This document shows positions 4,644-30,747 of a stretch of 64,000 bases of DNA, piece after piece. Location of the stretch: NCBI GenBank assembly GCA_965207275.1, contig CBDBMH010000001.1:553244-617243 (forward strand). The letters run 5' to 3'. The position numbers and the translations under genes are program-made. Positions within the stretch are counted from its first letter, which is position 1. The number at the start of each line of letters is the position of its first letter. Under the pieces are notes generated by a model. That model was given only the letters and a program-made list of their open reading frames with translations. It searched no databases and was not told the DNA's origin. This DNA comes from Dehalococcoidia bacterium (GTDB lineage Bacteria; Chloroflexota; Dehalococcoidia; Lucifugimonadales; UBA3495).

Positions 4644-4677
4644 GTTGGTTGCCTCTTTCTATGGGAATTGATGGAGT

Positions 4678-6939: not shown

Positions 6940-6951
6940 CTCCTTTCTGGC

Positions 6952-7281
6952 CTATGGGATGGGAAAGACCTCGATGATGCGGCTGTTGATGGCGACGGCG
7001 ATGCCCTTGGCCAGCAGCACCACCACCAGGCCGACCACGGCCATAATTACGGCGTTCCTGGCCCGGCCCCTGTTCTCGCCCTCGGCGCCCTCGGCCATCA
7101 GGACGAACCCGGCCCAGACCAGGGCGAAGAAGCACAGGCCCACCCCGGCGTAGGCCATTCCCGTCAGCACGTTGTCGAAGGCGGCCTGCATCGCGGCCTT
7201 CTTTTCCCCGGTTGTCCCGGCGGCGACGGAGACCAGCGCCGCCGCCGGGGACAGGAGGATGGCGGGAATGCGCCCTACCAC
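6952..7281 (-). CDS. Small hydrophobic T4SS-associated membrane protein (pilin/VirB2-like topology)
   Basis: This is the C-terminal part of ORF 6952..7938. It has three hydrophobic helices: IPAILLSPAAALVSVAAG, MAYAGVGLCFFALVWAGFVLMA and AVIMAVVGLVVVLLAKGIAV. A putative GTG start overlaps the upstream stop (GTGGTAG). An alternative ATG lies at 7191, so the start is uncertain. Confidence 0.45.
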   Translation of the reverse strand: MVGRIPAILLSPAAALVSVAAGTTGEKKAAMQAAFDNVLTGMAYAGVGLCFFALVWAGFVLMAEGAEGENRGRARNAVIMAVVGLVVVLLAKGIAVAINSRIIEVFPIP

Positions 7282-8936
7282 GGAAAACCCCACCAGGAGG
7301 AATCGCCCACGGTGGTCTGCTCCGCTTTGGGCGGCTCCGGGGTGGGAGCGGGCACCACCAGCCCCGCGTAGGGGGCGTCGGCTCCCAGGCCCAGGGACCG
7401 GACCTGGCCCGTAATCGGGGTGGGGGCCAGGGCAATGGTCTCGGTGCGGGAGGGGGTTACGGCGCTGCGCTCCGTCTCCACTGCCCGCACGTGCTCCGGG
7501 TGATGGACCCGTATGCGCACCGTCTTGATGGTGGTGCTTTCGCCGCACCGGCACGTCACCCGCCGGGTGTAGACGTCGGTGCGCGCCGGGTGGTGGGTGG
7601 TCTGCAACATGGGCGGCAGCGGCACGTTCAGCGCCGCCGTAAGCTCCGCCGTGATCTCCAGTTCGTGGACCGCCTTCTCGTCGGGCACGGTCAGGGTGAA
7701 ATTGGTCTCGCCGCCCTGGACGAAGCTGGCGCTGGTCGTGTTGGAACCGGCGGATACGCTGACCGTTCCGGTAACGCCGGTGACGGTGGCGTCCAGCAGG
7801 GCCGGGACCGACTGGCTGAAGTGGCCGCCGTAGACCGGCAGATCCACCTCCTGGCGGGTCTCGGCGATGCACTCCGAGGCTATGACGCCGGTGATTGCCC
7901 CGGGCGTCCACTCCAGGGAGGTCATTGCCAGGTCGCACAGCTCCCCGTCGGCCTCGGGCAGGGGGTAGGGGATCTGGTTGCTCTTCAGGGACACCGCCCC
8001 GCTGCGGCCCAGGGCGTCCACCCAGGAGAAGGTGAGGGACGGCGAGGGTCCGTCCAGGGAGAGGTTGTAGCTCTTGGACTGCCCGGCGCTCATGGGAGTG
8101 TTGAACCCCATGCGCAGGGTCCGGCCGCTCCTGCCGCCGTAGGCTCTCCCCCGCAGGTGCAACTCGTGGGCCGCGCGGAGGGTGACGTTGGCGTGGTTGG
8201 CGGTTACGCTGATGCCCTCGATGAAGACTCGCCGCCCCGGCGCCGGGTCCGGCGGGACGAAGTAGATTTCGCCCAGCCGCCAGGCGTCTCCGTAGGGCTG
8301 GTCCTCGGGTTCGTCCTCGGTTTGGTCATCCGGGTCGTCGGCCAGGGCGCCGCCGGGCAGCAGCACCAGGGCCAGCACCGCCAGCGCGCCCACCCCGGCC
8401 ACGGCCAGGAACCGGCTCCACGGTTTCCTGTGCTTGACCATTTCGCGTTCGGTCCGAGGCCGGTTGGCGTCGGCGTCCCTGGAACGGCGGCCCTTGCCGA
8501 ACCAGCTGTGGGGGCGGAAGGGGCGCCGCCCCTTCTGCCGCGCCGCCTTCACCGCATTGCCCACCTTGCCCACCGCCTTCTTCGCCAGCAGCCGCAGCGG
8601 GTCGGGCTTGGCCTCCGGCACGGGCGGCGGCTCGCTGATTGCCAGCTCCGCCGGACAGCCGGCGTAGAGCCGGGCCCCCAGCTTGAACTTCAGCAGGTCG
8701 GCGGCCACCAGGGGCAGCCCCCGGCCGCCCACCTTGCCCACGGTCATGGCGATGCCCGTGATTCCCAGCAAGATGGCGATGCCCAGCTTCAGCCCCGAGG
8801 GGCCGAAGGGGAAGTAGCGGTATACGCCGTAGGCCACGGCGCAGGTCGCCACCACCGCCACGATCTGGGGGAAGGTGAACCACAGCAGCGCCTTGTCCTC
8901 GGCCTGCACGTGGGTTGGTACTTCGTGCTCTCTCAT
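7275..8936 (-). CDS. PrgI/VirB3-like membrane protein with a large C-terminal extracytoplasmic extension (553 aa)
   Basis: The N-terminus VPTHVQAEDKALLWFTFPQIVAVVATCAVAYGVYRYF plus a second TM helix matches the PrgI-family pattern. AGGAGGGAAGGA SD. The remaining ~400 aa are uncharacterised. Confidence 0.6.
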   Translation of the reverse strand: MREHEVPTHVQAEDKALLWFTFPQIVAVVATCAVAYGVYRYFPFGPSGLKLGIAILLGITGIAMTVGKVGGRGLPLVAADLLKFKLGARLYAGCPAELAISEPPPVPEAKPDPLRLLAKKAVGKVGNAVKAARQKGRRPFRPHSWFGKGRRSRDADANRPRTEREMVKHRKPWSRFLAVAGVGALAVLALVLLPGGALADDPDDQTEDEPEDQPYGDAWRLGEIYFVPPDPAPGRRVFIEGISVTANHANVTLRAAHELHLRGRAYGGRSGRTLRMGFNTPMSAGQSKSYNLSLDGPSPSLTFSWVDALGRSGAVSLKSNQIPYPLPEADGELCDLAMTSLEWTPGAITGVIASECIAETRQEVDLPVYGGHFSQSVPALLDATVTGVTGTVSVSAGSNTTSASFVQGGETNFTLTVPDEKAVHELEITAELTAALNVPLPPMLQTTHHPARTDVYTRRVTCRCGESTTIKTVRIRVHHPEHVRAVETERSAVTPSRTETIALAPTPITGQVRSLGLGADAPYAGLVVPAPTPEPPKAEQTTVGDSSWWGFPW

Positions 8937-8946
8937 TCCTTCCCTC

Positions 8947-9261
8947 CTATCCGCCGCCGGGTGGTTCGGGGGTGCCGGAGGGGGTGGTGCCGCTGTTGCT
9001 GGGGTCGGGCACGTCCAGGTCCACCGGCGAGCCGACGACGGCGTTGATCACCAGCTCGACGACGCCATAAGCGACGAGGGCCAGCACGATGCCGGCCAGG
9101 GCGGTCATCATGGCGGACTTGCCGCGCTCCATCTGGTTGGGCGCGCCGGAGGCGGTGAGGTACATGTAGGCGCCGTATATGAAATAGCCAACGCCGACTA
9201 CTCCCACCAACCCCAGCAGGATGCCCACCAGGTTGGAAATTGTTTGTGTCAGGTCTCCCAT
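8947..9261 (-). CDS. T4SS pilin-like small membrane protein (104 aa)
   Basis: Two TM helices (LVGILLGLVGVVGVGYFIYGAYMYL and AMMTALAGIVLALVAYGVVELVI) flank a short loop, as in TrbC/VirB2-type pilins. AAGGAGAG SD. Confidence 0.55.
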   Translation of the reverse strand: MGDLTQTISNLVGILLGLVGVVGVGYFIYGAYMYLTASGAPNQMERGKSAMMTALAGIVLALVAYGVVELVINAVVGSPVDLDVPDPSNSGTTPSGTPEPPGGG

Positions 9262-9404
9262 AGATTTCTCTCCTTGCGTGTTCAGGCTTGGTCCGTTCAG
9301 CTGCTGATTGGGCGGTCAGCTCCGTTGTCCTACTGGCACATGGCTCCACCTCCCGGGATGGATGGCGGCGCGAGACAGGTCCGCGCCCGTAGTTGTCGTT
9401 GCTG

Positions 9405-11066
9405 CTATGGCCCCTGGCTGCGGGGCGTGGGGCTGTTCTGGGCTGCGGGCGTGGCGTTGGAAGCCGCCGAGTTCACCGCGCCGGCCGCGTTGCTGGCGGC
9501 GCCGGTAGCGGCAGCCGCAGCCGCCACACCCGCCGGTCCTCCGGCGGCGCCGCCCGCGATCAGCCCCAGTGCCCGTCCCGAGCGCACCATGGAACCGGGC
9601 AGGGACATGCCGAAGTAGAGGGTGTGCAGCCAGGCGTCGAAGGTGCCGTGGTTCCCCAGCATCGCGGGGATGCGGCCCGCCAGGTACATGAAGGCGATGG
9701 CCATCAGCAGCATCCACACCAGGTCCTGGGCCGCCTCGCCGCCGGTGATGTCGGCGAACTGGTCCAGGAAGGCGAAGGCCAGGGCCACGGCGATGAGCTG
9801 CACCGCCTGCTGGAACACCGTGGTCATGAACAGCCGCAGCCAGTGGCGTCCCCAGCCCGCCGTGTGGGGCAGAATCCACAGCCCCAGGCCGATGGGCGCC
9901 AGGCACAGCAGGATGTCGATCAGGGCCAGGCGCAGGACCATCTGCACCAGCAGGTAGAGGACGAAGAAGCCGAAGACGATGTAGAGCAACGCGATGAACA
10001 CCGCCAGCCCGGTGTTGGCCGCCTGGACCGCCACCAGCAATGGGTCCAGGGGAGCGCGCAGGAGGTCGCCGGGCGTGACCTCCAGGGAGGCGGCGATGAA
10101 CTGCGATACTGCATGGGCCACGTCGATGACCAGGGCGCACCACCACAGCGACGACGCGGCGGCGGTCAGGCCCAGCACCAATCTGGGCACCATCTCCCGC
10201 CAGCCCGACTGGTGTCTTCCGAGATGTTCTTGGACGATGAAGCTCAGGCCCATCCAGCCCAGGATCACCACCAAAGCCCCGGAGGTCACGGCCCATACCG
10301 CCGTCCACGCCTTCCGGATGAAGGGATGTTCGTAGGTCAGGTTGGGCGGGGTGCCGGTGAGGATGTCTCCCATCAGCCCCCGGGCCTCCCCGTCGCACTC
10401 GGCGATTCCCGCTCCGATGATTCCCTGCACCACCCCGCACAGGGTCCCGTGGGCGCCCTCGACCAGCCACCCGGCGGCGGCCCGGGCCCATCGGTCCGGT
10501 TTCAGCGCGCCCAGCACTTTGTCCCACAACCCCTTGGGCTGGTGGACAGGAATCAATGCGTGGAAGACGTGGCGCTCGCCGCCGCCCTGGCGGGGAACCC
10601 CCAGGACCAGCAGGAAAGCCTGCTCCGGGTCCAGGTCGGGCTGCTGGTCCAGGGCCGGGTACTCGAAGGTGTACTCCCAGCCCTCGGAAAGCTTCTTGCC
10701 GCTCCCCTGGACCCGGTAGGTGTTGGTGATCCACTCGCCGGTGTCCGGGTGGCGGACGGAGTAGTACAGCTCGCTGACCTGGCGGCTGAAGACGGGACGG
10801 GCCACGAAGTCCCCCTCCTTCTTCCGCTCCACCATCTGCCGGTCCTTGTTGACCAGGCTGATGTCGTCGGGGGACTGGGCCAGGGCCACGCCGCTAATGG
10901 GGACAGCAATGATTGCCGTAATCAACAGCGCCACCGCCAACAACACGGCCCGGCGTATCAACCGGAGTTTCCTTTTCTCCGCCAAGTCGTTCACCTCACT
11001 TCGGTCTGGGCGGCGGCGGTTTCGCCAGCGCCGCCGGAGAGTGTGAACGGGCCAGGCCTTCCGCAT
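9405..11066 (-). CDS. VirB6/TrbL-like polytopic membrane protein (up to 553 aa)
   Basis: At least 6 hydrophobic helices and an Ala/Gly/Asn-rich C-terminal tail. First gene of the T4SS operon. The true start may be downstream: a TTG near 10990 follows GAGGTG. Confidence 0.6.
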   Translation of the reverse strand: MRKAWPVHTLRRRWRNRRRPDRSEVNDLAEKRKLRLIRRAVLLAVALLITAIIAVPISGVALAQSPDDISLVNKDRQMVERKKEGDFVARPVFSRQVSELYYSVRHPDTGEWITNTYRVQGSGKKLSEGWEYTFEYPALDQQPDLDPEQAFLLVLGVPRQGGGERHVFHALIPVHQPKGLWDKVLGALKPDRWARAAAGWLVEGAHGTLCGVVQGIIGAGIAECDGEARGLMGDILTGTPPNLTYEHPFIRKAWTAVWAVTSGALVVILGWMGLSFIVQEHLGRHQSGWREMVPRLVLGLTAAASSLWWCALVIDVAHAVSQFIAASLEVTPGDLLRAPLDPLLVAVQAANTGLAVFIALLYIVFGFFVLYLLVQMVLRLALIDILLCLAPIGLGLWILPHTAGWGRHWLRLFMTTVFQQAVQLIAVALAFAFLDQFADITGGEAAQDLVWMLLMAIAFMYLAGRIPAMLGNHGTFDAWLHTLYFGMSLPGSMVRSGRALGLIAGGAAGGPAGVAAAAAATGAASNAAGAVNSAASNATPAAQNSPTPRSQGP

Positions 11067-20486: not shown

Positions 20487-20750
20487 ATGGCCGACACACA
20501 GACCCTGTACTTCCCCTGCCCCTCCTGCGGGGCAAGGTTCTGCCAGGTGGAGGAGCCGGACGGGGACATCCACGCCGGGGAGACCTACACCTGCAACGAG
20601 TGCGGCGCCGCCGTGGTCCTGGTTGCCCTGAGCATGGAGATGCTGGCCGACCCCGCCTCCATCCGCTGGGGCTGCCACTTCTGCCAGCCCGGCCCCTGCC
20701 GGTTGGCTCCATCCGGCGGCGGCGACTCATCCGAAAGCGATGCCAATTAA
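20487..20750 (+). CDS. Small zinc-ribbon protein (87 aa)
   Basis: Cys pairs CPSC...CNEC plus CHFC. GGGAGG SD. Confidence 0.5.
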   Translation: MADTQTLYFPCPSCGARFCQVEEPDGDIHAGETYTCNECGAAVVLVALSMEMLADPASIRWGCHFCQPGPCRLAPSGGGDSSESDAN

Positions 20751-20784: not shown

Positions 20785-21819
20785 ATGAGACTAGCTGCTC
20801 AGGCAAAGGGGGGCTTCTACCCGACGCCGCCCCAGGTCGTTGACCTGACTACCAAGCTGCTCTATGGGGCCAGGGGCCGCGCCAGGAACGCTGACACCCT
20901 GCGCATCCTGGACCCCTGCTGCGGCGCCGGGGACGCCCTGGCCCAGTTCGCGGGCCTGCTGCGCGACCGCAGCACTGTGCCCGTGGAGACCTTTGGAGTG
21001 GAACTGCACCGGGACCGGGCGGAACAGGCCGCCCGGATCCTGGACCGCGCCCTGGCCTGCGACCTCTTCGCCACCACCATCGCCAACAACGCCTTCGGCG
21101 TGCTGTTTCTGAACCCGCCCTATGACCACGACTCGGAAGACAAGCGGATGGAACACGCCTTCCTGATGTATTGCACCCGCTACCTGGCCGAGGGCGGGCT
21201 GCTGCTGTTCATCGTCCCCAGGCAGCGACTCGCCGTCTCCGCCCGCTACCTGTCCTCCCACTACCGGGACCTGCGGTGTTGGGCCTTCCCCAACCCGGAA
21301 AGGGAGGTCTTTGACCAGGTGGTGCTCATCGGGCGGCGCAAGGCCGAGCCCAGCCCCGACCCCTACGCCGAGGAGCAGGTCAGGGGTTGGTCCTTCGGCG
21401 AGCCGGAGGAGTTCTCCCCCCGCCCCTACCCGGTCTACGACCCGATGGTGACGCCCGCCGGGGACATCCTATTCGCCACCCGCACCGTGGACCCGCTGGC
21501 CGCCGTCGCCGAGGCCCGGAAGACCGGCCTGTGGGCCAGCCAGGAGGTGAAGGACTCCCTGTGGCCCGCCGAGGACCGGCGCACCCGGCCCCTGATGCCG
21601 CTGCGCCGTGGTCACCTGGCCATGCTGGTGGCGGCGGGATTCCTGGACAACCTGGTGCTGGAGGCCGACGGGCAGCGCATCCTGGTCAAGGGCCGCACCA
21701 CTAAGGAGATGATCCTGGCCGAGGAGACCGAGAACACCGAGGTCTACCGGGAGCGACTAAAAACCACCGTGGTGGCCCTGGACCTGGACGGCGGGGAGAT
21801 CACCGACATCGCCGCATAG
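20785..21819 (+). CDS. N6-adenine DNA methyltransferase-like protein (344 aa)
   Basis: SAM motif ILDPCCGAGD and catalytic LNPPYD. GAAGGAGG SD. Immediately upstream of the SNF2 helicase. Confidence 0.75.
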   Translation: MRLAAQAKGGFYPTPPQVVDLTTKLLYGARGRARNADTLRILDPCCGAGDALAQFAGLLRDRSTVPVETFGVELHRDRAEQAARILDRALACDLFATTIANNAFGVLFLNPPYDHDSEDKRMEHAFLMYCTRYLAEGGLLLFIVPRQRLAVSARYLSSHYRDLRCWAFPNPEREVFDQVVLIGRRKAEPSPDPYAEEQVRGWSFGEPEEFSPRPYPVYDPMVTPAGDILFATRTVDPLAAVAEARKTGLWASQEVKDSLWPAEDRRTRPLMPLRRGHLAMLVAAGFLDNLVLEADGQRILVKGRTTKEMILAEETENTEVYRERLKTTVVALDLDGGEITDIAA

Positions 21820-21942
21820 CCCAGCGCCAATTACCAACCGGACGGCTGCAGCGCCAGCCGCCGCACGAAGGCCCCGCTGGTCTTGGACACCGGCGGGGCC
21901 TTCGCCTTGTTCAACGGCAACCCTCACTCAAGGAGACTACCC

Positions 21943-24291
21943 ATGAACCTTTCCGGTTTCATCGACACCTTCAAGGAGTCCATCGCCCGCCGGGTGGTGG
22001 AGTCCTACCCGCCCCTGTACCGGCCCTCGGAGACCCCGGTCCAACTGCCCCGGCTGCTTCGCAAGCCGATGGGCGGCCAGGAGGACGCCATCAAGGGGAC
22101 GGCCCTCTCATTGCAAGCCCACCGGGGCACCACCGTCGTTGGAGAGATGGGCACGGGAAAAACTTTCATCGGCGCCGCCGCCGCCCACGCCGCCGGCTTC
22201 CGGCGGGTGTTGATCTTGTGCCCACCCCACTTGACCCGAAAGTGGAAGCGGGAGGTGGAGGATACGGTGCCAGGCGCCCGGGCCGCCATCGTCGCCTCCA
22301 TCACCGACCTGGAACGGCTGCGGCTGTCCGTGGGTCCCGCACCTCTCTTCGCCATCATGTCCCGAGAAAGGGCCAAGCTCTCCTACCGATGGCAGCCCGC
22401 CGTCATCCAGCGCTGGGCTGCTGCCGGGGGGCGACTGGTACGGGACGAGCAGACCGGCGAGCCCTTCCGGGTGCCCTGCTGCCCCACCTGTCACGCCCAG
22501 GTGGTGGACAAGGACGGGGTTCCCCTGACGATAGAGGAACTCTCCCGCAAGCGCCGCGACTGCGACCTCTGCCGGTCCGGCCTGTGGCAGGCCGACGGCA
22601 CCGGCCCCCGAAGGTATCCCCTTGCGGACTACGTGAAGCACCGGATGAAGGGCTTCTTCGACCTGATGGTGGCGGACGAGGTGCATGAGTTTAAGGCAAG
22701 AGGCTCGGCCCAGGGCATCGCCGCCGGGGTGCTGGCCGACTCCTGCGGCAAGTCCCTCACTCTTACCGGAACGCTGACGGGTGGGTATTCGAGCACTCTC
22801 TTCCACCTGCTCTACCGCTTCTCGCCCGACATCCGGGCCGAGTTCGGACGCTCCGAGGAGGGGCGCTGGATACAGCGCTACGGCTTCCTGGAGCAGACGG
22901 TGCGCCAGTCCGACGACGGAGACTCCTTCGAGGACGGGCGCAACAGCCGCCGCAAAGGATACCGCAAGACGGTCAGGGAGCGGCCCGGCCTGGCGCCCTC
23001 GGCTCTCTTCCACCTCATCGGCAACTCGGTTTTCCTGCGCCTCTCCGACGTGGCCTCGGGGCTGCCTCCCTACGAGGAACAGGTGCTGCTGTCGGGCATG
23101 GACCGGGAGACGGACCACACCGGATTCTCGCAGCGCAAGGCCTACGACGCGGTGTTCGACACCCTGCGGCAGGCGCTGGCGGCGGCGCTCCAGAAGGGTT
23201 CCAAGCGGCTGCTGGCGACCTATTTGCAGACCCTGCTGGCCTACCCCGACGGCTGCACCCGGGGCGAGACGGTCTTCGACCCGCAGACCGGCAACATGCT
23301 CATCCAGATGCCGCCGTTGTCGGAAGACAAGCTCTACCCGAAGGAGCAGGCGCTGGTGGACCTGGTGGCGGCGGAAAGGCTGGCCGGACGCAAGGTGCTG
23401 GTCTACGCCACCCACACCGGAACGCGGGACATCACCGAACGGATGGAAGAGTTCCTGACCACTCACGGGTTTCGCGTGGCGGTGCTCAAGGCGGACTCGG
23501 TGGCCCCGGACCGCCGCGAGGCCTGGGTGGAGGAACGGGTCAAGCAGGGCATCGACGTGCTGATCTGCCATCCCCGCCTGGTGCAGACCGGCCTCGACCT
23601 CATCGACTTCCCAACATTGGCTTGGTTCGAGACGGATTACAGCGTCTACACCATGCGGCAGGCGTCGCGCCGCTCCTGGCGCATCGGGCAGAAACGCCCG
23701 GTGAAGGTCGTCTTCATGGCCTACCGGAACACCCTCCAGGCCGACGCGCTCAAGCTGGTGGCCAAGAAGCTGCAAAGCTCCCTGGCGGTGGAGGGGGAGC
23801 TGCCCGAGGACGGCCTGGCCGCCTTCGGGGACGACGGCGACGACCTGATGCTGGCGTTGGCCCGCCAGATCGCCAGCAGCGATGAGACCGACGCCGATGG
23901 GGAGTCCGTGGAGGACGTGTTCGCAAAGGCCAAGGACGCCGAGGCCAGCGCCGAGGAGTTCCTGGTAGACGACGGATGGAAGGCGGTTCAGGTCGAACCG
24001 GAGGCCGTCGTGGTCAACGGGAACGGGGCCAATGGTAACGGCCACTACGAAGCCATTGAGCACACCGTCGAACTGGCGCTGGGTGACGGCCACACCAACG
24101 GGAACGGCCACGATGAAGGACCCACCGAGGGGCAGCAGTCCCTGTTCTCCTGGGCCGAGTTCCTGGCCGACGAACCGGCCCAGCCCAGGGGACGGAACGG
24201 CAAGCCGAAGCCCGCCACCCTCTCCATGTTCGAGTGGGCCCTCACCGTCGAACAGGAAGGGGAAAAAGAGCCGGTGAGCGCGGGACGCTAG
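21943..24291 (+). CDS. SNF2/DEAD-like helicase with an inserted zinc ribbon (782 aa)
   Basis: Motif I GEMGTGKTF, motif II MVADEVHEF, motif VI QASRRSWRIGQKRPV. Cys4 insert CCPTCH...CDLC. AAGGAG precedes the ATG at 21943. The C-terminal tail has NGNGANGNGH low complexity. Confidence 0.85.
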   Translation: MNLSGFIDTFKESIARRVVESYPPLYRPSETPVQLPRLLRKPMGGQEDAIKGTALSLQAHRGTTVVGEMGTGKTFIGAAAAHAAGFRRVLILCPPHLTRKWKREVEDTVPGARAAIVASITDLERLRLSVGPAPLFAIMSRERAKLSYRWQPAVIQRWAAAGGRLVRDEQTGEPFRVPCCPTCHAQVVDKDGVPLTIEELSRKRRDCDLCRSGLWQADGTGPRRYPLADYVKHRMKGFFDLMVADEVHEFKARGSAQGIAAGVLADSCGKSLTLTGTLTGGYSSTLFHLLYRFSPDIRAEFGRSEEGRWIQRYGFLEQTVRQSDDGDSFEDGRNSRRKGYRKTVRERPGLAPSALFHLIGNSVFLRLSDVASGLPPYEEQVLLSGMDRETDHTGFSQRKAYDAVFDTLRQALAAALQKGSKRLLATYLQTLLAYPDGCTRGETVFDPQTGNMLIQMPPLSEDKLYPKEQALVDLVAAERLAGRKVLVYATHTGTRDITERMEEFLTTHGFRVAVLKADSVAPDRREAWVEERVKQGIDVLICHPRLVQTGLDLIDFPTLAWFETDYSVYTMRQASRRSWRIGQKRPVKVVFMAYRNTLQADALKLVAKKLQSSLAVEGELPEDGLAAFGDDGDDLMLALARQIASSDETDADGESVEDVFAKAKDAEASAEEFLVDDGWKAVQVEPEAVVVNGNGANGNGHYEAIEHTVELALGDGHTNGNGHDEGPTEGQQSLFSWAEFLADEPAQPRGRNGKPKPATLSMFEWALTVEQEGEKEPVSAGR

Positions 24292-24395
24292 ACCGCAAAG
24301 GCACACGGAGGGGCCGTCGCTAATCGAACGGCGGCCTCCCCGCACATGGCAAACCGGACGAAACGGCAACCAACGATTTCAGAGGAGATAAAACG

Positions 24396-24602
24396 ATGGC
24401 ACGTGTGTTTGTTTACGACGAACGGGAGTTCCCCGACCCCGACCCGGAGATGACAGTCGAGCAGGTGAAATCCACATTGGCCGACTTCTACGGGGAAATC
24501 GCCAACGCCTCGGTGAAGGAGACCCAGCGGGGCCAGGACACCATCTACGAGTTCCAGCGGCGGGTGGGCACCAAGGGCGCCTTCACCTTCGCCCGCAGCT
24601 AG
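24396..24602 (+). CDS. PRTRC system protein C-like ubiquitin-like (beta-grasp) protein (68 aa)
   Basis: The pattern EFPDPDPEMTVEQVKSTLADFYGEIANASVKE...IYEFQRRVGTKG matches my recollection of PRTRC protein C. JAB and ThiF genes lie in the same cassette. Confidence 0.75.
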   Translation: MARVFVYDEREFPDPDPEMTVEQVKSTLADFYGEIANASVKETQRGQDTIYEFQRRVGTKGAFTFARS

Positions 24603-24614
24603 GGAGGCAATCAA

Positions 24615-24845
24615 ATGGACAACCACACCCTGTCCGGTCTGCTGGCGGCAACCCCGCCGGCGGACCTGAAGATCATCGAGCTCACGGCGGAGCTCACCCG
24701 GCCCGACGGCTCCCTTGACTTGGACGCGGCGGCGGCCCGGCAGGCGGAGGCGGAACTGGCCTGCGCCCAGGCCGAGGAGTACGCCGCCGCCACCAAGCGG
24801 CTGCTGGGAGCGATGCGGTGGAAGCTGCGGCCCCGCCGCTCCTGA
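24615..24845 (+). CDS. Hypothetical protein of the PRTRC cassette (76 aa)
   Basis: GGGAGG SD. Ala/Glu-rich helical sequence. Confidence 0.45.
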   Translation: MDNHTLSGLLAATPPADLKIIELTAELTRPDGSLDLDAAAARQAEAELACAQAEEYAAATKRLLGAMRWKLRPRRS

Positions 24846-25663
24846 GCGGGCTGGCTCAATCGCTCCTGCGGCGTCCGCCGTCGCTGCGGGAGCTGGTCAC
24901 CCTTATCGGCTACGCCGAGGACTACGCCTGGTTCGCCGGCCTGGTAAGCCGCCTCTTTCCCCAGGAGGCCGAGGCGATTCTGGCCGCTCCCGACGTGAAC
25001 CGGAGGGTGGAGGGTTTTGCAGAACTTTTCCAGGAGCGGCACTTCCCCCTCTACGGCCCCTTCCTGGACTTCTGGCTGGACGAGGGCGACGAGCCTCCCT
25101 GGAGCTGGCTCAGGCGGGGAATCCCCTTCGACCTGGTGGGCTTCGGCTACGACGACCTGCACGAGATGTGGGACGGCTACCGGGAGGGGTTGTCGGCCCT
25201 GGCGCTGCTGGCCCAGCCGCCCGACTCCTTCTTCATGGGTCCCGAAGGGATGAGGACGGCCTGGCTGGAATCCGCCGCCGAGCGCATCCCCCAGGACACG
25301 CTGGAGCGGATTCCCGCGGGCGGCATACCCCTGGAGGCCCTGACCGAGGCGGTGCAGGAAACGGAGTTCCAGGGAGCGGCCCAGGCCGCCGCCTGGGTCT
25401 GGAGCGAGACCGGCAACTTCTTTCTCGACCACAACTACAGCGATGGCGATTACGACGGGTTCTCAGACCCCTGGGAGGAGGAAATCATCCGGGAAGGGAC
25501 AGAGGAATGGCAAAAGGCCAGCGCCCTGATCGACTCGGTGACCCAACTCGCCGGATGGCTGGAGGGAGACCTGCCGGGCCGCTTCGCCGGGATGCTGGAC
25601 TTCATCCTGCCCCAGCTTCCCGAACCAACGACACAACAGGAGGAAAACGATGACGACTGTTGA
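24818..25663 (+). CDS. Hypothetical acidic protein of the PRTRC cassette (281 aa)
   Basis: GTG start with GGGAG upstream. No recognisable motif. Ends by overlapping the protein B start. Confidence 0.5.
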   Translation: MEAAAPPLLSGLAQSLLRRPPSLRELVTLIGYAEDYAWFAGLVSRLFPQEAEAILAAPDVNRRVEGFAELFQERHFPLYGPFLDFWLDEGDEPPWSWLRRGIPFDLVGFGYDDLHEMWDGYREGLSALALLAQPPDSFFMGPEGMRTAWLESAAERIPQDTLERIPAGGIPLEALTEAVQETEFQGAAQAAAWVWSETGNFFLDHNYSDGDYDGFSDPWEEEIIREGTEEWQKASALIDSVTQLAGWLEGDLPGRFAGMLDFILPQLPEPTTQQEENDDDC

Positions 25664-26088
25664 CACCGACACCGCCCGCTGGTCCCTGCCGGGTCGGGCG
25701 GACATGCCCACCGACCAGCTCCAGGTGCAGTTGGAGGTCTACAACGAGACCGTCCTGCTGCGGGGCTTCGAGGGCGACACCAACTGGGTCAGGACTGTCT
25801 CGGCGGACGAGATCGCCAATGTGTTCACCCGGCACCTGGGATTCTCCTCGGGGCTGCTGCCCGAAAACACCCTCTGGTGGGGCCAGGGCGAGACCGGCCA
25901 GATGGTGGCCCTCTGGAGGCCGCCCCAGGTCTGGCCGGTGGCCCTGCAACGGGAAGCCTTCAAGCCGCCAGCACGGCTCAGGGTTCCAATGCCGGGGCTG
26001 GTGTTCGTCTGCTCACCGGCACGGGCGCCCTGGGTCTATGCCGCCCTGGAAAGGCCCAGCAACCCGGAGCAGCAGCTCTACCGCGCCC
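25650..26088 (+). pseudogene. PRTRC protein B-like gene, 5' fragment (interrupted by IS)
   Basis: AGGAGG SD and ATG at 25650. The reading frame runs into the IS left end after ...EQQLYRAP. It joins in frame with 27983..28251 once the IS and one GCCC copy are removed. Confidence 0.7.
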
Positions 26089-27978
26089 CCCAAATCCACC
26101 ACCTAATGGGAGGAAAAGACCTCGTTGGAGCCAGCGGCAAAGCTGGCTATGATGGTTACGGGACAAACACAACCATCACCAACGAGGTGCAGTCATTATG
26201 CAACAGGGAGTCCTGCCATTCCAGTATGGGACGGAGCATCGCGCGGGGGGCATGACGGGGCTGTCGGGGTTGGCGGTCTATCTGGAAATGGCCGATGCGA
26301 TGGGGCTGGGCGAGTCGATCCGGCGCTACGTGAAGGTCAAGGAGGGCGGACAGGGATGGACGGACCGGCAGATGGTCACCGCGCTGGTGCTGCTGAATCT
26401 GGCCGGTGGAGAAGGAGTGGACGACCTCCGGGTGCTGGAAGGGGACGAGGGTCTGGGCCGGATGTTGGGCCGGGTGGAGACGCACCGGCAGCGGGCTTGT
26501 GAGCGCCGGGAGGAGGGCAGCCGGTGGCGGGGCGGGCGGCGCCGCAGCGTCCCGTCTCCGTCGGCGGTGTTCCGGTACCTGGGCCGGTTCCACGACCCGG
26601 TTCAGGAGGAGGCCAGGCAGCCCCATACGGCGTACATACCCGCGCCCAGCGGCGCGCTGCGCGGGCTGGGGAAGGTCAACGCCGAGATGATGAGCTTCGT
26701 CCGGGACCACCTGGAGCAGGAGCAGGCGACGCTGGACATGGACGCGACGCTGATCGAGACCTACAAGCAGGAGGCGCTGTACTGCTACCAGGGCTACAAG
26801 GCCTACCAGCCGATGGTCACCTACTGGGCCGAGGCGGACCTGGTGGTCCATTCGGAGTTCCGGGACGGCAACGTGCCAGCGGGGTTCGAGCAACTGCGGG
26901 TGTTGCGGGAGTCGCTGGCCCATCTGCCGGAGGGCGTGGTGAAGGTGATGCTGCGGTCGGACACGGCGGGGTACCAAGTTGAGTTGTTGCGGTACTGCGC
27001 CGAGGGGAGGGATGAGCGGTTCGGAGTGATCGAATTCGCGGTGGGGGCGGACGTCACGGAGGGGTTCAAGCGTGCGGCAGCCGAAGTGGAGGAGAGCCAG
27101 TGGCGCCGGTTGCCCCGGATGGTGGGGGAGTTGGCGGTGGAGACGGAACAGGAGTGGGCCGAGGTGGACTTCGTGCCCGATAGATTGGCTTATTCCAAGA
27201 ATGATCCCGACTACCGTTTCATAGCGGTCCGGGAGCCGCTGAGGCGGCCGCCGCTGCCGGGCATGGAGGATGACCTGGAGTTGTCGGTTCCGGCGATGGA
27301 GATGCCGGACCGGGGCTGGTACAAGATCCGGGGGATAGTGACTAACCGGGAGCTACCGGGAGATGAGGTGGTGCGGTGGTACCGGGAGAGATGCGGGAAG
27401 GGCGAGGAGGTGCATGGTGTGCTGAAGGAGGACTTGGCTGGCGGGAGGCTGCCGTCGGGACAGTTCGGGGCCAACGCGGCCTGGTGGGCGATAGCGGCGC
27501 TGGCGTTCAACCTGAACTCGGCGGTCAAGCAGTTGGCCCTGGGCGGTCAGTGGGTGAACAAGCGGCTCAAGGCGGTGCGCTTTGCTCTGATCAATCTGGC
27601 CGGACGGGTGGTCTGCCACGCCAGGAAGCTGCTGATCCGGCTGGCCCGGGGCCATCCATCCTTCCCGCTGCTGGCGGGAGCGCACCGGAGAATAGCGGCG
27701 CTGGCCCACGGCCCACCCTGACCTGGGACGGTCTGCGCCACTACCGACGGGCATTCAAGCGACGGGGACTCCCGCCGTAGGGACACTGCGCCCTTCTCCA
27801 GGACCGGTTGGCATAGACCTCGCCCTGGCGTCGCCGGCCAACGCCCCAATATCCCCTTCCAGCGCCTACTCCTGCCACGCCAACCCACTGCCAACCTGTC
27901 AGCCGTCAGCCGATGCCCCAACCGGCCCAATCAAGGAGCCCCAAAACCATTTTTCTCCCATTAGGTGGTGGATTTGGG
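26089..27978 (+). mobile_element. IS element, IS1380-family-like, 1890 bp
   Basis: Terminal inverted repeats CCCAAATCCACCACCTAATGGGAG(G/A)AAAA: 24 perfect bp, then one mismatch, then 4 more matches. Flanked by a 4-bp direct duplication GCCC (26085-26088 and 27979-27982). Carries a single transposase ORF. Confidence 0.85.
26198..27721 (+). CDS. DDE transposase (IS1380-family-like, 507 aa)
   Basis: The N-terminal pattern GGMTGLSGLAVYLEMADAMGLGESI...GGQGWTDRQMVTALVLLNLAGGEGVDDLRVLEGDEGL is as I remember for IS1380/IS4-related transposases. Bounded by the IRs. Confidence 0.75.
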   Translation: MQQGVLPFQYGTEHRAGGMTGLSGLAVYLEMADAMGLGESIRRYVKVKEGGQGWTDRQMVTALVLLNLAGGEGVDDLRVLEGDEGLGRMLGRVETHRQRACERREEGSRWRGGRRRSVPSPSAVFRYLGRFHDPVQEEARQPHTAYIPAPSGALRGLGKVNAEMMSFVRDHLEQEQATLDMDATLIETYKQEALYCYQGYKAYQPMVTYWAEADLVVHSEFRDGNVPAGFEQLRVLRESLAHLPEGVVKVMLRSDTAGYQVELLRYCAEGRDERFGVIEFAVGADVTEGFKRAAAEVEESQWRRLPRMVGELAVETEQEWAEVDFVPDRLAYSKNDPDYRFIAVREPLRRPPLPGMEDDLELSVPAMEMPDRGWYKIRGIVTNRELPGDEVVRWYRERCGKGEEVHGVLKEDLAGGRLPSGQFGANAAWWAIAALAFNLNSAVKQLALGGQWVNKRLKAVRFALINLAGRVVCHARKLLIRLARGHPSFPLLAGAHRRIAALAHGPP

Positions 27979-27982
27979 GCCC

Positions 27983-28251
27983 CGGCCTTCAACGTCTTCC
28001 GGGACGGGCGGACCTGCCCCGGAAGCCACCGCTTCCCCGAGGAGGTGGGACTGATACCTGAGTCCTTCTTCCAGTCCTTCTTCTCCCTTACCGGAGACAC
28101 GAACGACCGGTCGAAGACGCACCCTGAGAATCTGCAAGCCTTATGGGAGGAACTCGATGGACAGACTGACTACCCGGTTGAGGACCTGGTTCCCCAGTGC
28201 ACCGTGGGGCAGGTCATCGCCGCCTGCGAAGGAAGGCGGGGCTACCGCTAG
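27983..28251 (+). pseudogene. PRTRC protein B-like gene, 3' fragment
   Basis: Continues ...(RAP)AFNVFRDGRTCPGSHRFPEEVG... to a TAG at 28249-28251, in frame with the 5' fragment after IS removal. Confidence 0.7.
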
Positions 28252-28891
28252 CGCGGCGCCCAACGCTGGCAATGCCGCGAGGCCGGTGGGCTACCTGGTG
28301 AACCATCCTGCCGGTCTCGGCGGTTTCCACGGCGTGGGGTACGACTACGTTCTCGGGTCGGGCGGCCTCTACGTCCAGTCCGAGAGCGCCCACCTTACGG
28401 TGCGGGTCCTGGTCGCTCCTTGCGAAGTGCGGGGACTGGCTCCCGTAACCGAGAAGTTGACTCTCACCCACGGCCCCATTCCGGCCCATGTCTTCGAGCT
28501 GGGGCTGGCCTGGATGCTGGCCGCGCCGGGCACCGAGCGGTTCTTCGCGGTGCGCTGGGACGGCGACCTCTACCGGCTGGTCGTGCCCCCGCAGGAGGGT
28601 ACGGCTTCGTCCCTCTCCTACCAGCCTCCCGCCGGGGTGGTCGCCGAGTTTCACTCCCACGGGCGCCACCGCGCCTTCTTCTCCGCCACCGACGACCGGG
28701 ATGAGCAGGGCTTCCGAATCTACGGCGTCGTGGGCCGCCTGGACAAGCCTGAACCGGAGCTAACCCTGCGAGTGGGCGTCTACGGCCACTTCGCGCCGCT
28801 GCGCTGGCGGCAGGTCTTTGGAGGACTGCCCCCCGGCCTGAGGCCGGCGGGCGAGGAGCCGGAGGCGACACCAAGCTACCCACTCATATAA
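28157..28891 (+). CDS. PRTRC protein A-like JAB/MPN metallopeptidase
   Basis: JAMM motif AEFHSHGRHRAFFSATDDRDE. The start is uncertain. The maximal ORF overlaps the protein B 3' end, and a GTG at 28286 is an alternative. Confidence 0.7.
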   Translation: MDRLTTRLRTWFPSAPWGRSSPPAKEGGATASAAPNAGNAARPVGYLVNHPAGLGGFHGVGYDYVLGSGGLYVQSESAHLTVRVLVAPCEVRGLAPVTEKLTLTHGPIPAHVFELGLAWMLAAPGTERFFAVRWDGDLYRLVVPPQEGTASSLSYQPPAGVVAEFHSHGRHRAFFSATDDRDEQGFRIYGVVGRLDKPEPELTLRVGVYGHFAPLRWRQVFGGLPPGLRPAGEEPEATPSYPLI

Positions 28892-28906
28892 GGAGGTAAC
28901 ACCACC

Positions 28907-29707
28907 ATGCCCTACTACCTGACCAACGAGTTCCTGCTGGACAACCCCTGGATCACCGTGGTGGGCTGCGGCGGCACCGGCGGCTTCGTCGCCGAAGGCC
29001 TCTGCCGCCTCTTCCAGGGCCGCGACGCCACCATCGTCCTGGTGGACCACGACCGGGTGGAACCCCACAACCTGCTGCTCCAGAATTTCTACGCCGAGGA
29101 CGTGGGCCGCTTCAAGAGCCAGGCCCTGGCCGACCGGCTGTCCCAAGCCTACCACCGGCCCGTGGGCTACTCGGTCTATCCCTTCCGGGGGGAAGATCCC
29201 CTGGCTGACGGCCAACGCTACCCCGGGCTCTCCTTCCACGACGGCCTGATCATCGGCTGCGCCGACAACGCCGCCGCCCGGCGCGCCATGGCCGAGTGCC
29301 TGCCCGGAGACCCCTGCCGCTGGCTCATCGACGCGGGCAACGACACCAACTGGGGTCAGGTATTGATTGGCAACGTGGCCCAGCGGATGCGCCTGGAGGA
29401 ACCGCCCTTCACCGGCGACACCTGCCTGCTGGCCCCGGCGCCGACGCTGCAACGCCCCGACCTTCTGACGGCGGTCTCCACCAGGCCACCGGACGTGGAC
29501 TGCGCGGCGGCCCTGGACCTCACCGACCAGGACCCGACCATCAACCAGATGATGGCCTCGCTGGTGTTGCAGGTGGTGCGCCGCATGGTGGCCGGGACCT
29601 GTCCCTTCCTGGCCCTCTACCTGGACATGGACCAGGGGACGGTGACCCCCAGCTACGTCACGCCGGAGACGGTGACACGGCTGATAGGCCGGACTGACGC
29701 CGGGTGA
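28907..29707 (+). CDS. ThiF/MoeB/E1-like adenylyltransferase of the PRTRC cassette (266 aa)
   Basis: Rossmann motif ITVVGCGGTGGFVAEGL, then VLVDHDRVEPHNLLLQNF and CADNAAARRA. AAGGAGG SD. Confidence 0.85.
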   Translation: MPYYLTNEFLLDNPWITVVGCGGTGGFVAEGLCRLFQGRDATIVLVDHDRVEPHNLLLQNFYAEDVGRFKSQALADRLSQAYHRPVGYSVYPFRGEDPLADGQRYPGLSFHDGLIIGCADNAAARRAMAECLPGDPCRWLIDAGNDTNWGQVLIGNVAQRMRLEEPPFTGDTCLLAPAPTLQRPDLLTAVSTRPPDVDCAAALDLTDQDPTINQMMASLVLQVVRRMVAGTCPFLALYLDMDQGTVTPSYVTPETVTRLIGRTDAG

Positions 29708-29754
29708 ACGGCGCAAACCAACATTCGCACAGCACCGACAAGGAGAATGAAACC

Positions 29755-30747
29755 ATGCCTGACGAAAAGGAAACCGCCACGACCATGTGGCAGGACCACC
29801 GGAGTGGGAAGCGGGGGCACGAGTTGATGACCAGGAAGCTGGCCGACACCATCCCCGCCCTCTACGCCAACGAGCGCGTGGCCGACTACGATACCGTCCT
29901 GGCCCGCGCCAAGCTCTTCAGTCCGTATAGCCAGTGGACCTGGTTCATAACGGAAATGGACCCCGCTACCGGAACCTGCTTCGGCCTGGTGGAAGGGTTG
30001 GAGCAGGAAATCGGCTACTTCGACCTCACCGAGCTGGCCGAGACCACCGTCTTCGGCGGCGTCCCCGCCGTGGAGCGCGACCTGTACTGGGAACCCAGGA
30101 CCCTGGGCGAGATCAAGAACGGCTCTCAGGGGGACTTGGCGCACAAAGCGGGAATCAGAGGGGGAGATACCATGAATGACGATACGGGAACGGAAATCCA
30201 CCCCGTCGACGTGGTGGACGTGGTGAACGTAGAGGAGTTCCTCTTCGGCGGCGTGACTGAGGAAACGGTGGACGAAGCGCCCGCCGAAGTTGCCGGAGAG
30301 CTTCTCGCTGGAGAAGCCACGGACGAGGCGGGCGACCTGGAAATCGCCGAGGAACAGGACGCCGAGGCGGAGACCGCTGCTGACGAACCCGATGATGCGG
30401 ATGATGACGGGAAGCAGCCCGCTCCTGCTGAGACCGAAACCACCGATGAATTGAAGGTGGTGCTGTCCATCAGGGGAGGCCGGGCCATCATCGGGGTACA
30501 GCAGCCCTTGGCGGACCCCCACATCGAGTCCTTCGACAGCCTGGACCTCCTGGGTCTGGCGTTGCAGGTCCCGGGGGTGGTCGAGAGGGCCAGGGACCGG
30601 TGGGAGGAAGCGCCCAAGTACCCGGCCTACGAAAAGCCCGCTCCCCCGGCCCGGCGGCAGCGCCAGCGGCGGCAGGCGCCGGTGGAGGCTGAGGCAGAGC
30701 AGGGAGAGACGGAGCAGGAGCAGCCGGAAACGCTGCGGCTGTTCTAG
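29755..30747 (+). CDS. DUF2958-like N-terminal domain protein with an acidic C-terminal half (330 aa)
   Basis: IPALYANERVADYDTVLARAKLFSPYSQWTWFITEMDPATGTCFGLVEGLEQEIGYFDLTELAE...VERDLYWEPRTLGEI matches the DUF2958 pattern common on conjugative plasmids. GGAGAATGA SD region. Confidence 0.65.
   Translation: MPDEKETATTMWQDHRSGKRGHELMTRKLADTIPALYANERVADYDTVLARAKLFSPYSQWTWFITEMDPATGTCFGLVEGLEQEIGYFDLTELAETTVFGGVPAVERDLYWEPRTLGEIKNGSQGDLAHKAGIRGGDTMNDDTGTEIHPVDVVDVVNVEEFLFGGVTEETVDEAPAEVAGELLAGEATDEAGDLEIAEEQDAEAETAADEPDDADDDGKQPAPAETETTDELKVVLSIRGGRAIIGVQQPLADPHIESFDSLDLLGLALQVPGVVERARDRWEEAPKYPAYEKPAPPARRQRQRRQAPVEAEAEQGETEQEQPETLRLF

Follow-up and report, generated by a model that had tools for sequence, protein, structure and literature searches.

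Regarding bacterial operons for ubiquitin-like conjugation, the closest described system is operon class 6d, which was predicted in 2006 (Iyer, Burroughs & Aravind 2006, Genome Biol 7:R60; PMC1779556). Its members encode a small ubiquitin-like protein (Ubl) with a C-terminal Gly, a helical protein, an E2-like protein that has the Cys and lacks the His of the HPN motif, a JAB protein with an N-terminal domain, and an E1 (PMC1779556). The NCBIfam models TIGR03734-TIGR03742 describe the ParB-Related, ThiF-Related Cassette (PRTRC). Class 6d/PRTRC is one of the bacterial ubiquitin-like operon families without experiment; its cousins CBASS Cap2/Cap3, Bil and Bub are real conjugation pathways. A cassette of this type was analyzed in a stretch of 64,000 nucleotides (hereafter the window) from a Dehalococcoidia bacterium (GenBank assembly GCA_965207275.1, contig CBDBMH010000001.1, positions 553,244 to 617,243 of the forward strand). 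Six tightly packed plus-strand genes at window positions 24396-29707 encode a Ubl precursor, two accessory proteins of 76 and 281 residues (u76 and u281), an E2-like protein, a JAB metallopeptidase and a ThiF-type E1; the gaps between the genes are small or the genes overlap, and a strong Shine-Dalgarno (SD) sequence precedes each. An earlier reading of the bare sequence (the original prediction) had named these parts, and all of them are present on the plus strand where it had placed them. The cassette is probably a divergent, ParB-less branch of class 6d/PRTRC carried by a family of integrative and conjugative elements (ICEs) of Dehalococcoidia, and the window copy is a disabled member of this family known since 2006 as a prediction.

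Apart from the ubiquitin-conjugating (UBC) fold, which is putative for the E2-like protein, the descriptive features of class 6d are all recognizable at this locus. The small protein is a beta-grasp protein according to its hidden Markov model (HMM) match and has a conserved C-terminal Gly. A predicted helical accessory protein is encoded between Ubl and E2, as is also the case for Tolypothrix and Sphingomonas (cassettes described below), with detectable homology to the cyanobacterial protein only. The E2-like protein has a conserved Cys and carries Phe in place of the HPN His, and H162 or H193 is the candidate for the downstream conserved His of the class 6d E2. The JAMM residues lie in the C-terminal half of the 244-residue (or 201-residue) JAB protein, which leaves the N-terminal extra region typical of the class, and the E1 consists of a ThiF domain alone in 266 residues, without a rhodanese domain. 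Class 6d has the same five kinds of protein, including a fast-evolving helical protein and an E1 without a rhodanese domain. The present cassette differs from it in an extra 76-residue gene between Ubl and the helical protein, in a short variable Ubl tail, in the insertion sequence (IS) that interrupts this copy, and in its Chloroflexota host group, which lies outside the list of 2006. Each of the four Pfam models (Prok_Ub, Prok-E2_D, Prok-JAB and ThiF) is matched above its gathering score. As for the PRTRC models, the original prediction was right in part: for Ubl, E2, JAB and E1, the top NCBIfam match is in each case the expected PRTRC model (C, B, A and ThiF, respectively), but only C passes its cut-off. 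No PRTRC ParB was found among the window open reading frames (ORFs) scanned, as had been claimed, and the best TIGR03734 match in the whole genome, located at C2:2.48 Mb, reaches 38.6 bits against a cut-off of 278.6 and is distant from each of the three cassettes of this genome. Neither u76 nor u281 matches any NCBIfam model, those of PRTRC proteins E and F included. Judged by these profile scores, strict PRTRC membership fails: no ParB was found, nothing matches the models of proteins E or F, and the scores for A, B and ThiF stay below their cut-offs.

Relatives were sought in one genome per species, which gave 80 loci, with gene order determined by tblastn. Almost all of the loci lie in Dehalococcoidia, Chloroflexota or SAR202 genome bins, often several to a genome, and the order SSB - RadC - u216 - u136 - (u87) - methyltransferase - SNF2 - Ubl - u76 - u281 - E2 - JAB - E1 - DUF2958 is near-fixed. 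A full-length SNF2 match lies upstream of Ubl in 65 of the 80 loci, and in all ten other loci that were re-examined (those with an upstream flank and Ubl) at least the 3' part of SNF2 precedes Ubl. DUF2958 follows E1 in 65/80 loci. Intact copies, whose existence the original prediction had left to a survey, are abundant, as the 80 syntenic loci and more than 1000 E2 homologues attest. The median ratios of nonsynonymous to synonymous substitution (dN/dS) are 0.20 for E1, 0.22 for Ubl, 0.25 for E2, 0.37 for u281, and 0.39 for both u76 and JAB, indicating that all six genes are maintained by purifying selection. The Dehalococcoidia branch thus offers a clean comparative set of about 80 syntenic loci, with a Ubl processing signature, an invariant E2 Cys, the u281 family and natural knock-outs; the window copy alone, as a recently disabled family member, adds little.

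Two plasmid cassettes are informative for comparison. The PRTRC of the Sphingomonas sanxanigenens plasmid pNXO2 (NZ_CP011450.1) is arranged as ParB - E - C - hypothetical - B - A - ThiF; it shares with the present locus the order C - X - B - A - ThiF and the Asn...Cys-x-Gly motif of protein B. In contrast to PRTRC, the locus studied here has no ParB and no protein E, its E2 shares about 30% identity with B proteins annotated as PRTRC, no relationship was detected for the product encoded between C and B, and canonical protein C ends at Gly without a tail. The conjugative plasmid of Tolypothrix sp. PCC 7601 (NZ_CP064880.1, 64-70 kb) carries Ubl - helical - E2_D - MPN/JAB - ThiF in the same order and likewise without ParB. 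Its helical protein is homologous to u281, and its E2, JAB and E1 align with those of the window family at hhalign probabilities of 98.4-99.4%. Unlike the present Ubl, that of Tolypothrix (..AGTKG) is fused to a 79-residue extension, a separate 76-residue gene is absent, and the E2 identity is about 27%.

Experimentally characterized systems differ more clearly. Bil operons (Type I/II BilABCD, anti-phage, Type II corresponding to class 6C) likewise contain a Ubl, an E2 with a catalytic Cys, a JAB and an E1. BilD, however, is a multidomain E1 with an inactive adenylation domain, an active adenylation domain and a Cys domain (IAD-AAD-CYS), whereas the E1 here is a single domain of 266 residues; furthermore, Bil has no helical accessory protein, and the present cassette is found at a junction of an ICE backbone. 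PADLOC 2.0.0 gave no match for Ubl, E2, JAB, u76 or u281 (whether it includes Bil models was not verified), and the E1 matches CBASS E1-E2 models alone, over about 70 residues of the generic Rossmann part. From this single-domain E1 and the lack of defense-model matches, the predicted system is not Bil. Bub (class 6E/DUF6527) and Type II CBASS Cap2/Cap3 are further bacterial E1/E2/JAB relatives that perform protein conjugation (PMC11601596). Bub uses Ser/Tyr oxyesters and a DUF6527 protease, in contrast to the invariant E2 Cys here, and in Cap2, which conjugates a cGAS-like enzyme, E1 and E2 are fused, in contrast to the separate E1 and E2 and the dedicated small Ubl of this cassette. Further families were still called uncharacterised in the Bub preprint of 2024 (PMC11601596).

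Table 1. Positions of the cassette genes, the inserted element and the adjoining features in the window
Feature	Position	Strand	Profile match or remark
DUF6094 N6-methyltransferase	20785-21819	+	Pfam match; upstream of cassette
SNF2-type helicase	21883-24291	+	Pfam match; directly upstream of cassette
GC-rich hairpin	24306-24342	+	within the 104-nt SNF2-Ubl gap
Ubl precursor (predicted), 68 residues	24396-24602	+	Prok_Ub 52.7 bits; TIGR03738 PRTRC_C 48.7 bits
u76, 76 residues	24615-24845	+	conserved; matches no family
u281, 281 residues	24818-25663	+	conserved, mostly alpha-helical; matches no family
E2-like gene, 5' part (codons 1-146 and one base)	25650-26088	+	PF14460 31.9 bits, profile positions 17-94
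Target duplication GCCC	26085-26088 and 27979-27982
IS1380-family IS, 1890 bp	26089-27978	+	NF033539 transpos_IS1380 230.3 bits
IS inverted ends	26089-26117 and 27950-27978
IS1380 transposase gene	26198-27721
E2-like gene, 3' part (with Asn150, Cys158, His162)	27983-28251	+	PF14460 26 bits, profile positions 90-170
Asn150 codon of E2	27991-27993
Predicted catalytic Cys158 codon of E2	28015-28017
JAB/JAMM metallopeptidase with N-terminal extension	28157-28891	+	PF14464 29.3 bits; TIGR03735 PRTRC_A 58.6 bits
Minimal E1, 266 residues, one ThiF-type adenylation domain	28907-29707	+	PF00899 46 bits; TIGR03736 PRTRC_ThiF 87.6 bits
DUF2958 protein	29704-30747	+	PF11171 37.6 bits; start overlaps E1 stop (GTGA)

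The Ubl gene carries the clearest processing signature. The original prediction had recognized PRTRC protein C in the 68-residue product, and the product indeed passes the TIGR03738 cut-off of 45.95 bits as well as that of Prok_Ub (25 bits), with the profile ending at G61. The predicted mature Ubl corresponds to 24396-24578 and ends at Gly61, and a tail of seven residues, AFTFARS, follows at 24579-24599. Nearly all related loci recovered (about 75 of 77) keep the segment EFQRRVGTKG, and the tails beyond Gly61 differ in length and sequence. Protein C of the PRTRC cassettes on plasmids of Pseudomonas, Sphingomonas and D. gobiensis terminates precisely at ..KG, and its terminal Gly aligns with G61. 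In Type II BilA, up to nine residues without conservation lie beyond a Gly that is universally conserved, and the JAB enzyme BilC removes them before adenylation (PMC10557695). The variable tail after G61 accordingly bears the predicted signature of a precursor trimmed by the JAB protein. As a separate observation, the annotated PRTRC of the Pseudomonas aeruginosa plasmid pWTJH12-KPC (L087, 8.6-12.3 kb of the record) consists of ParB, E, C, a 458-residue protein, B and ThiF, with no protein A (JAB), and its Ubl ends precisely at ..DKG. This tail-less Ubl in a cassette without JAB fits the idea that JAB is needed where Ubl has a tail, although it is a single observation.

The E2-like gene is interrupted by a 1890-bp IS. 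The two pieces match Prok-E2_D and PRTRC_B at profile positions 17-94 and 90-170, and joined across the IS they are in frame, reading ...YRAPAFNVFRDGRTCPG. Excision of the IS together with one GCCC restores an open frame of 235 codons (...QQLYRAPAFNVFRDGRTCPGSH...), whose product matches PF14460 as a single stretch at 66.9 bits and TIGR03737 PRTRC_B, its best NCBIfam match, at 68.6 bits. The reconstruction of a protein B-like gene in the original prediction is borne out by this pass of PF14460. More than 1000 full-length homologues of the joined product were found at E<=0.001, the best with 92% identity, and the gene is therefore not a chance finding. The IS belongs to the IS1380 family, as its transposase exceeds the NF033539 cut-off of 180 bits, its inverted repeats of 29-30 nt are 97% complementary, and it is flanked by a 4-bp GCCC duplication. 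It sits in codon 147 of E2, three codons ahead of Asn150 and 11 ahead of Cys158, and so divides the N-terminal two thirds of the protein from the active-site loop, by which the predicted pathway of the window copy is broken. The 4.3-Mb genome holds 37 full-length copies with precisely the same ends; 35 of them are identical, implying that the insertion into E2 is recent and part of an IS burst. No large insertion was found in the E2 gene of the 80 related loci or of either sister copy of this genome. This IS also forms head-to-tail dimers and a single trimer, with units exactly 5 bp apart, for example at C2:2955794-2961473, C2:3071191-3074975 and C1:513430-517214; such tandem IS1380 arrays are uncommon and might stem from the mechanism of transposition or from an effect of the assembly.

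Conservation around the predicted active site is strict. N150, G155, C158 and G160 are invariant in 76 close E2 sequences, and five PRTRC B/Prok-E2_D proteins found in Deinococcus, Tolypothrix, Pseudomonas and Sphingomonas, with 23-33% identity, all keep N150, C158 and G160. The original prediction had likened this region to the flank of the E2 active site, and the Cys of AFNVFRDGRTC proved to be the invariant one, with an Asn-Cys spacing like that of the HPN...C loop. In the UBC motif HPNIxxxGxIC the spacing is N-x4-G-x2-C, equal to that of N150/G155/C158.

Several points count against the assignment to class 6d/PRTRC or leave the UBC fold of its E2 putative. The scores for PRTRC proteins A (58.6 bits against a cut-off of 101.8), B (68.6 against 131.45) and ThiF (87.6 against 144.75) reach about half of the cut-offs. 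An AlphaFold2 model of an intact E2 homologue has a mean predicted local distance difference test score (pLDDT) of 43.6, from a shallow alignment of 76 sequences with 74-90% identity, and Foldseek found no PDB match at E<=0.001 for this low-confidence model. An hhalign comparison of an E2 profile with human UBE2D2 places N150/G155/C158 in register with the Asn, Gly and Cys of the HPN loop at a probability of 1.2%, which is not significant and carries no weight. A search of PDB sequences with the E2 profile gave nothing meaningful. Furthermore, no experimental study of class 6d/PRTRC was found, and the literature on PRTRC or on ubiquitin-like systems of plasmid leading regions gave annotation mentions only.

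The JAB and E1 predicted from the bare sequence are both supported by profile matches, with Prok-JAB passing its gathering score, ThiF likewise, and PRTRC_ThiF as the best NCBIfam match of the E1. The JAMM motif E127...H166-S-H168...S176-x-x-D179 is present in the JAB protein, and its residues are conserved in the Tolypothrix and Sphingomonas homologues. Two starts are available, namely ATG 28157 (SD GGGAGG, overlapping E2 by 95 nt) and GTG 28286. Conservation begins at GTG 28286 and residues 17-42 are not conserved, suggesting that the true start may be GTG 28286. In the window and in related loci, the SD and ATG of JAB are encoded within the invariant E2 motif LWEELDG. The E1 contains the G-x-G-G-x-G loop, D47/D49, N55, Q59, D120 and R125, and C199 is its sole Cys that is invariant across distant homologues. 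At codon 58 (29078-29080) the window E1 has CTC (Leu), where the NLxRQ motif has Arg. This Arg is shared by 79/80 clade members and both sister copies, and further afield by MccB of PDB 3h5n and all five distant ThiF proteins of PRTRC type. In the ThiF/MoeB/E1 superfamily, the Arg of NLxRQ touches the ATP phosphates, and the window E1 with R58L is therefore probably impaired as well. Across all six genes, R58L and D6T, both in E1, are the sole substitutions peculiar to the window copy at columns that are invariant in the other sequences. A general decay of the window copy was considered and rejected, because apart from the IS it shows these two changes and no broad pseudogenisation.

Regarding the accessory proteins, the original prediction had pointed out two ORFs without a known family after Ubl. 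Neither matches Pfam or NCBIfam, yet both are kept in 76-77 of the 80 loci. u76 is found in 76/80 loci; 41% of its residues are at least 97% conserved, its start is preceded by the SD GGGAGG, and it has no match in Pfam, NCBIfam or PADLOC. Its position and size are like those of the 79-residue extension of the Tolypothrix Ubl, but a correspondence between them was rejected for want of support, the hhalign probability being 0.7%. u281 is present in 77/80 loci, and its own start is conserved with the SD GGAG, being ATG in 44 and GTG in 21 of 78 loci. The possibility that u76 and u281 are one frameshifted gene similar to PRTRC F was rejected on account of this conserved start and SD and because the gene calls of distant relatives give separate products of ~280 residues. 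The AlphaFold2 model of u281 is all-helical (pLDDT 64) and found no Foldseek match. u281 belongs to a large uncatalogued family of 560 clusters at 50% identity (E<=0.001); a search of 76 diverse members against Pfam and NCBIfam gave no match. The family profile matches the protein at the same position of the Tolypothrix plasmid (hhalign 94%, E 1.4e-7) and gave no match with the proteins at the same position of the Sphingomonas, Pseudomonas and Deinococcus PRTRC cassettes. By position, u281 corresponds to the "novel alpha-helical protein" of operon class 6d. In the broad family the conserved residues are mainly aromatic, Pro and Gly, with H115, D204, R146 and E151 at 80-89%, a sequence pattern compatible with a putative enzyme or scaffold that does not decide between the two.

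The genome of the window contains three copies of the whole block, and the two others have an intact E2. In the second copy, the Ubl gene at C2:109085-109290 has a 1-nt deletion (GGAGACCC to GGGACCC) that causes a frameshift after residue 41, with the rest of the cassette intact; this is either a real pseudogene or a sequencing error. The third copy (C2:2216024-2219402) looks intact. The same primase/Rad52/SSB/RadC/methylase/SNF2 block lies beside all three. Two of the three copies thus have independent lesions (E2::IS1380 with E1 R58L, and the Ubl frameshift), and it is conceivable, as part of the conflict-module proposal given below, that several active copies in one cell are costly or interfere with each other. 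At least eight related type IV secretion system (T4SS) modules (VirB6, pilin, u553, VirB4, coupling protein, relaxase) are found in the genome, for example at C1:2740-14440, C1:464905-476727, C2:50223-61873, C2:1342391-1354145 and C2:2133347-2145054; only three adjoin an establishment block with a Ubl cassette.

The following pathway can be proposed from the predicted domains. The 68-residue Ubl precursor would be trimmed by the JAB metallopeptidase, exposing Gly61, which the 266-residue ThiF-type E1 would then adenylate and possibly pass on through its invariant Cys199. The Ubl would next be transferred to the E2-like protein, forming a thioester with Cys158, and finally be joined to target proteins, for which u281 and u76 may serve as clade-specific specificity or scaffold partners. 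The JAB protein could also undo the tagging. The window copy could work only if other genomic copies supply E2 and probably E1.

The original prediction had placed the cassette on a conjugative element, and genes for a relaxase, a coupling protein, VirB4, a pilin and VirB6 on the minus strand at 367-11066 substantiate this. The plus-strand block encodes a primase, a Rad52 annealase, DUF7007 and TSCPD proteins, a PD-(D/E)XK nuclease, SSB, RadC, a zinc protein, an orphan methyltransferase and SNF2. An 87-residue protein at 20487-20750 has weak matches to Lar-type restriction-alleviation and CxxC zinc-binding models (E ~0.002, below cut-offs), which is in line with a possible anti-restriction character of the block. 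A search for an inverted repeat resembling an origin of transfer (oriT) at 11.0-13.85 kb gave two short palindromes only. The claim that the cassette belongs to the establishment region stands in part: the cassette adjoins the establishment block, whose conserved part ends with SNF2, but it sits at the junction with the cargo region and is optional in sister elements. Three observations tell against an essential role in establishment. In an even sample of the class, E2 occurs in 27 of 301 genomes, as compared with SNF2 orthologues in 52 of 301. All eight cassette-less sister loci (SNF2 69-77% identical) have unrelated genes right after SNF2, and DUF2958 is absent from them as well. In three of the eight, the genes found there include known defense systems, namely Type I restriction-modification (R-M) with a DRT4 reverse transcriptase, an HmaC/DUF499 ATPase, and a Type IIG R-M enzyme. 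The cassette with DUF2958 is accordingly an optional module that fills the first cargo position after SNF2 in this ICE family. The DUF2958 family is typical of conjugative elements and not of defense islands.

Regarding the role of the module, its optional status and a slot shared with defense genes weaken a core establishment role and point to a conflict-type function, either of the element against its host (counter-defense or takeover) or of the host against invaders; the plausible roles are narrowed accordingly. It is conceivable, at somewhat less than an even chance and as the least certain part of the interpretation, that the module serves the ICE itself by tagging host or competitor proteins during entry or settling. 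A more specific proposal, that the Ubl cassette and DUF2958 form a conflict module of the conjugative element tagging recipient, phage or rival-element proteins, with u281 and u76 as a new substrate-selecting partner that replaces an E3, is unlikely to hold as a whole. The cassette may instead be defense cargo of the ICE like Bil, Bub and CBASS Cap2/Cap3, which tags phage or rival-element proteins and protects the host cell and so the element. Every characterized bacterial Ubl/E1/E2 pathway acts in anti-phage immunity (PMC11601596, PMC10557695), the cassette is facultative, and it occupies the first slot after SNF2, in which sister elements hold the R-M, DRT4, HmaC/DUF499 and Type IIG genes. 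This explanation is nevertheless rather doubtful, since PADLOC recognizes none of Ubl, E2, JAB, u76 and u281 and detects the E1 by its generic Rossmann part alone, in every re-examined locus with an upstream flank and Ubl the cassette runs in the same direction as SNF2 and is joined to its 3' end, the cassette travels with DUF2958, and its plasmid relatives adjoin replication or partition genes (ParB, dnaN, a primase-type protein).

This last association is also in line with a function in the replication, partition or maintenance of the element, by reversible tagging of element or host replication proteins or as an addiction-type module, the latter being a speculation of Iyer et al. 2006 (PMC1779556). 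Canonical PRTRC is linked to a ParB homologue and adjoins dnaN or dnaX on plasmids, the cassette here comes after the primase, annealase, SSB and helicase block, and the pairing of E1/E2 with JAB provides opposing activities (PMC1779556). However, the present branch has no ParB, sister elements with the same replication/recombination block lack the cassette, and no loss of the elements is apparent although two of their three cassettes in this genome have lesions, which makes such a function improbable. It is very improbable that the small protein and E1 are a sulfur-carrier pair like ThiS/ThiF or MoaD/MoeB without protein conjugation. The E1 is a minimal single-domain ThiF-type protein whose next-best NCBIfam matches are ThiF models, but these scores of 31-46 bits are far under the cut-offs of 152-275. 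In addition, the E2-like protein with an invariant Cys and the JAMM peptidase are fixed parts of the operon, the Ubl has a variable tail that would need removal, and no rhodanese domain, thiamine gene or molybdopterin gene was found among the neighborhood ORFs scanned. A module that tags proteins on behalf of the ICE remains the tentative reading put forward here.

The intergenic region upstream of the cassette has a conserved structure. The segment 24292-24395 folds at -31.6 kcal/mol (ViennaRNA), and one or two strong hairpins, without a clear T-run, lie between SNF2 and Ubl in all 14 related loci inspected. The hairpin position is constant, and the stem sequences differ among loci yet still pair, in the manner of covariation. 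The hairpin may act as a terminator, an attenuator or a single-strand signal. A scan of 24.2-31 kb for promoter and terminator consensus sequences gave counts no higher than those in shuffled sequence.

Some of the related loci are rearranged or deleted variants. In L012, L021, L036, L045, L057, L069 and L032, the last ~220-240 codons of SNF2 alone precede Ubl. The T4SS end (coupling protein and relaxase, with VirB4 in addition in L012) lies ~2.8-4.1 kb upstream in the same orientation in L012 and L069. About 2.5 kb of extra DNA separates block neighbors in L046 (6805-10001), in L018 and L064 (between SNF2 and Ubl), and in L005 and L020 (between E1 and DUF2958); the extra DNA of L046 appears to shorten u281.

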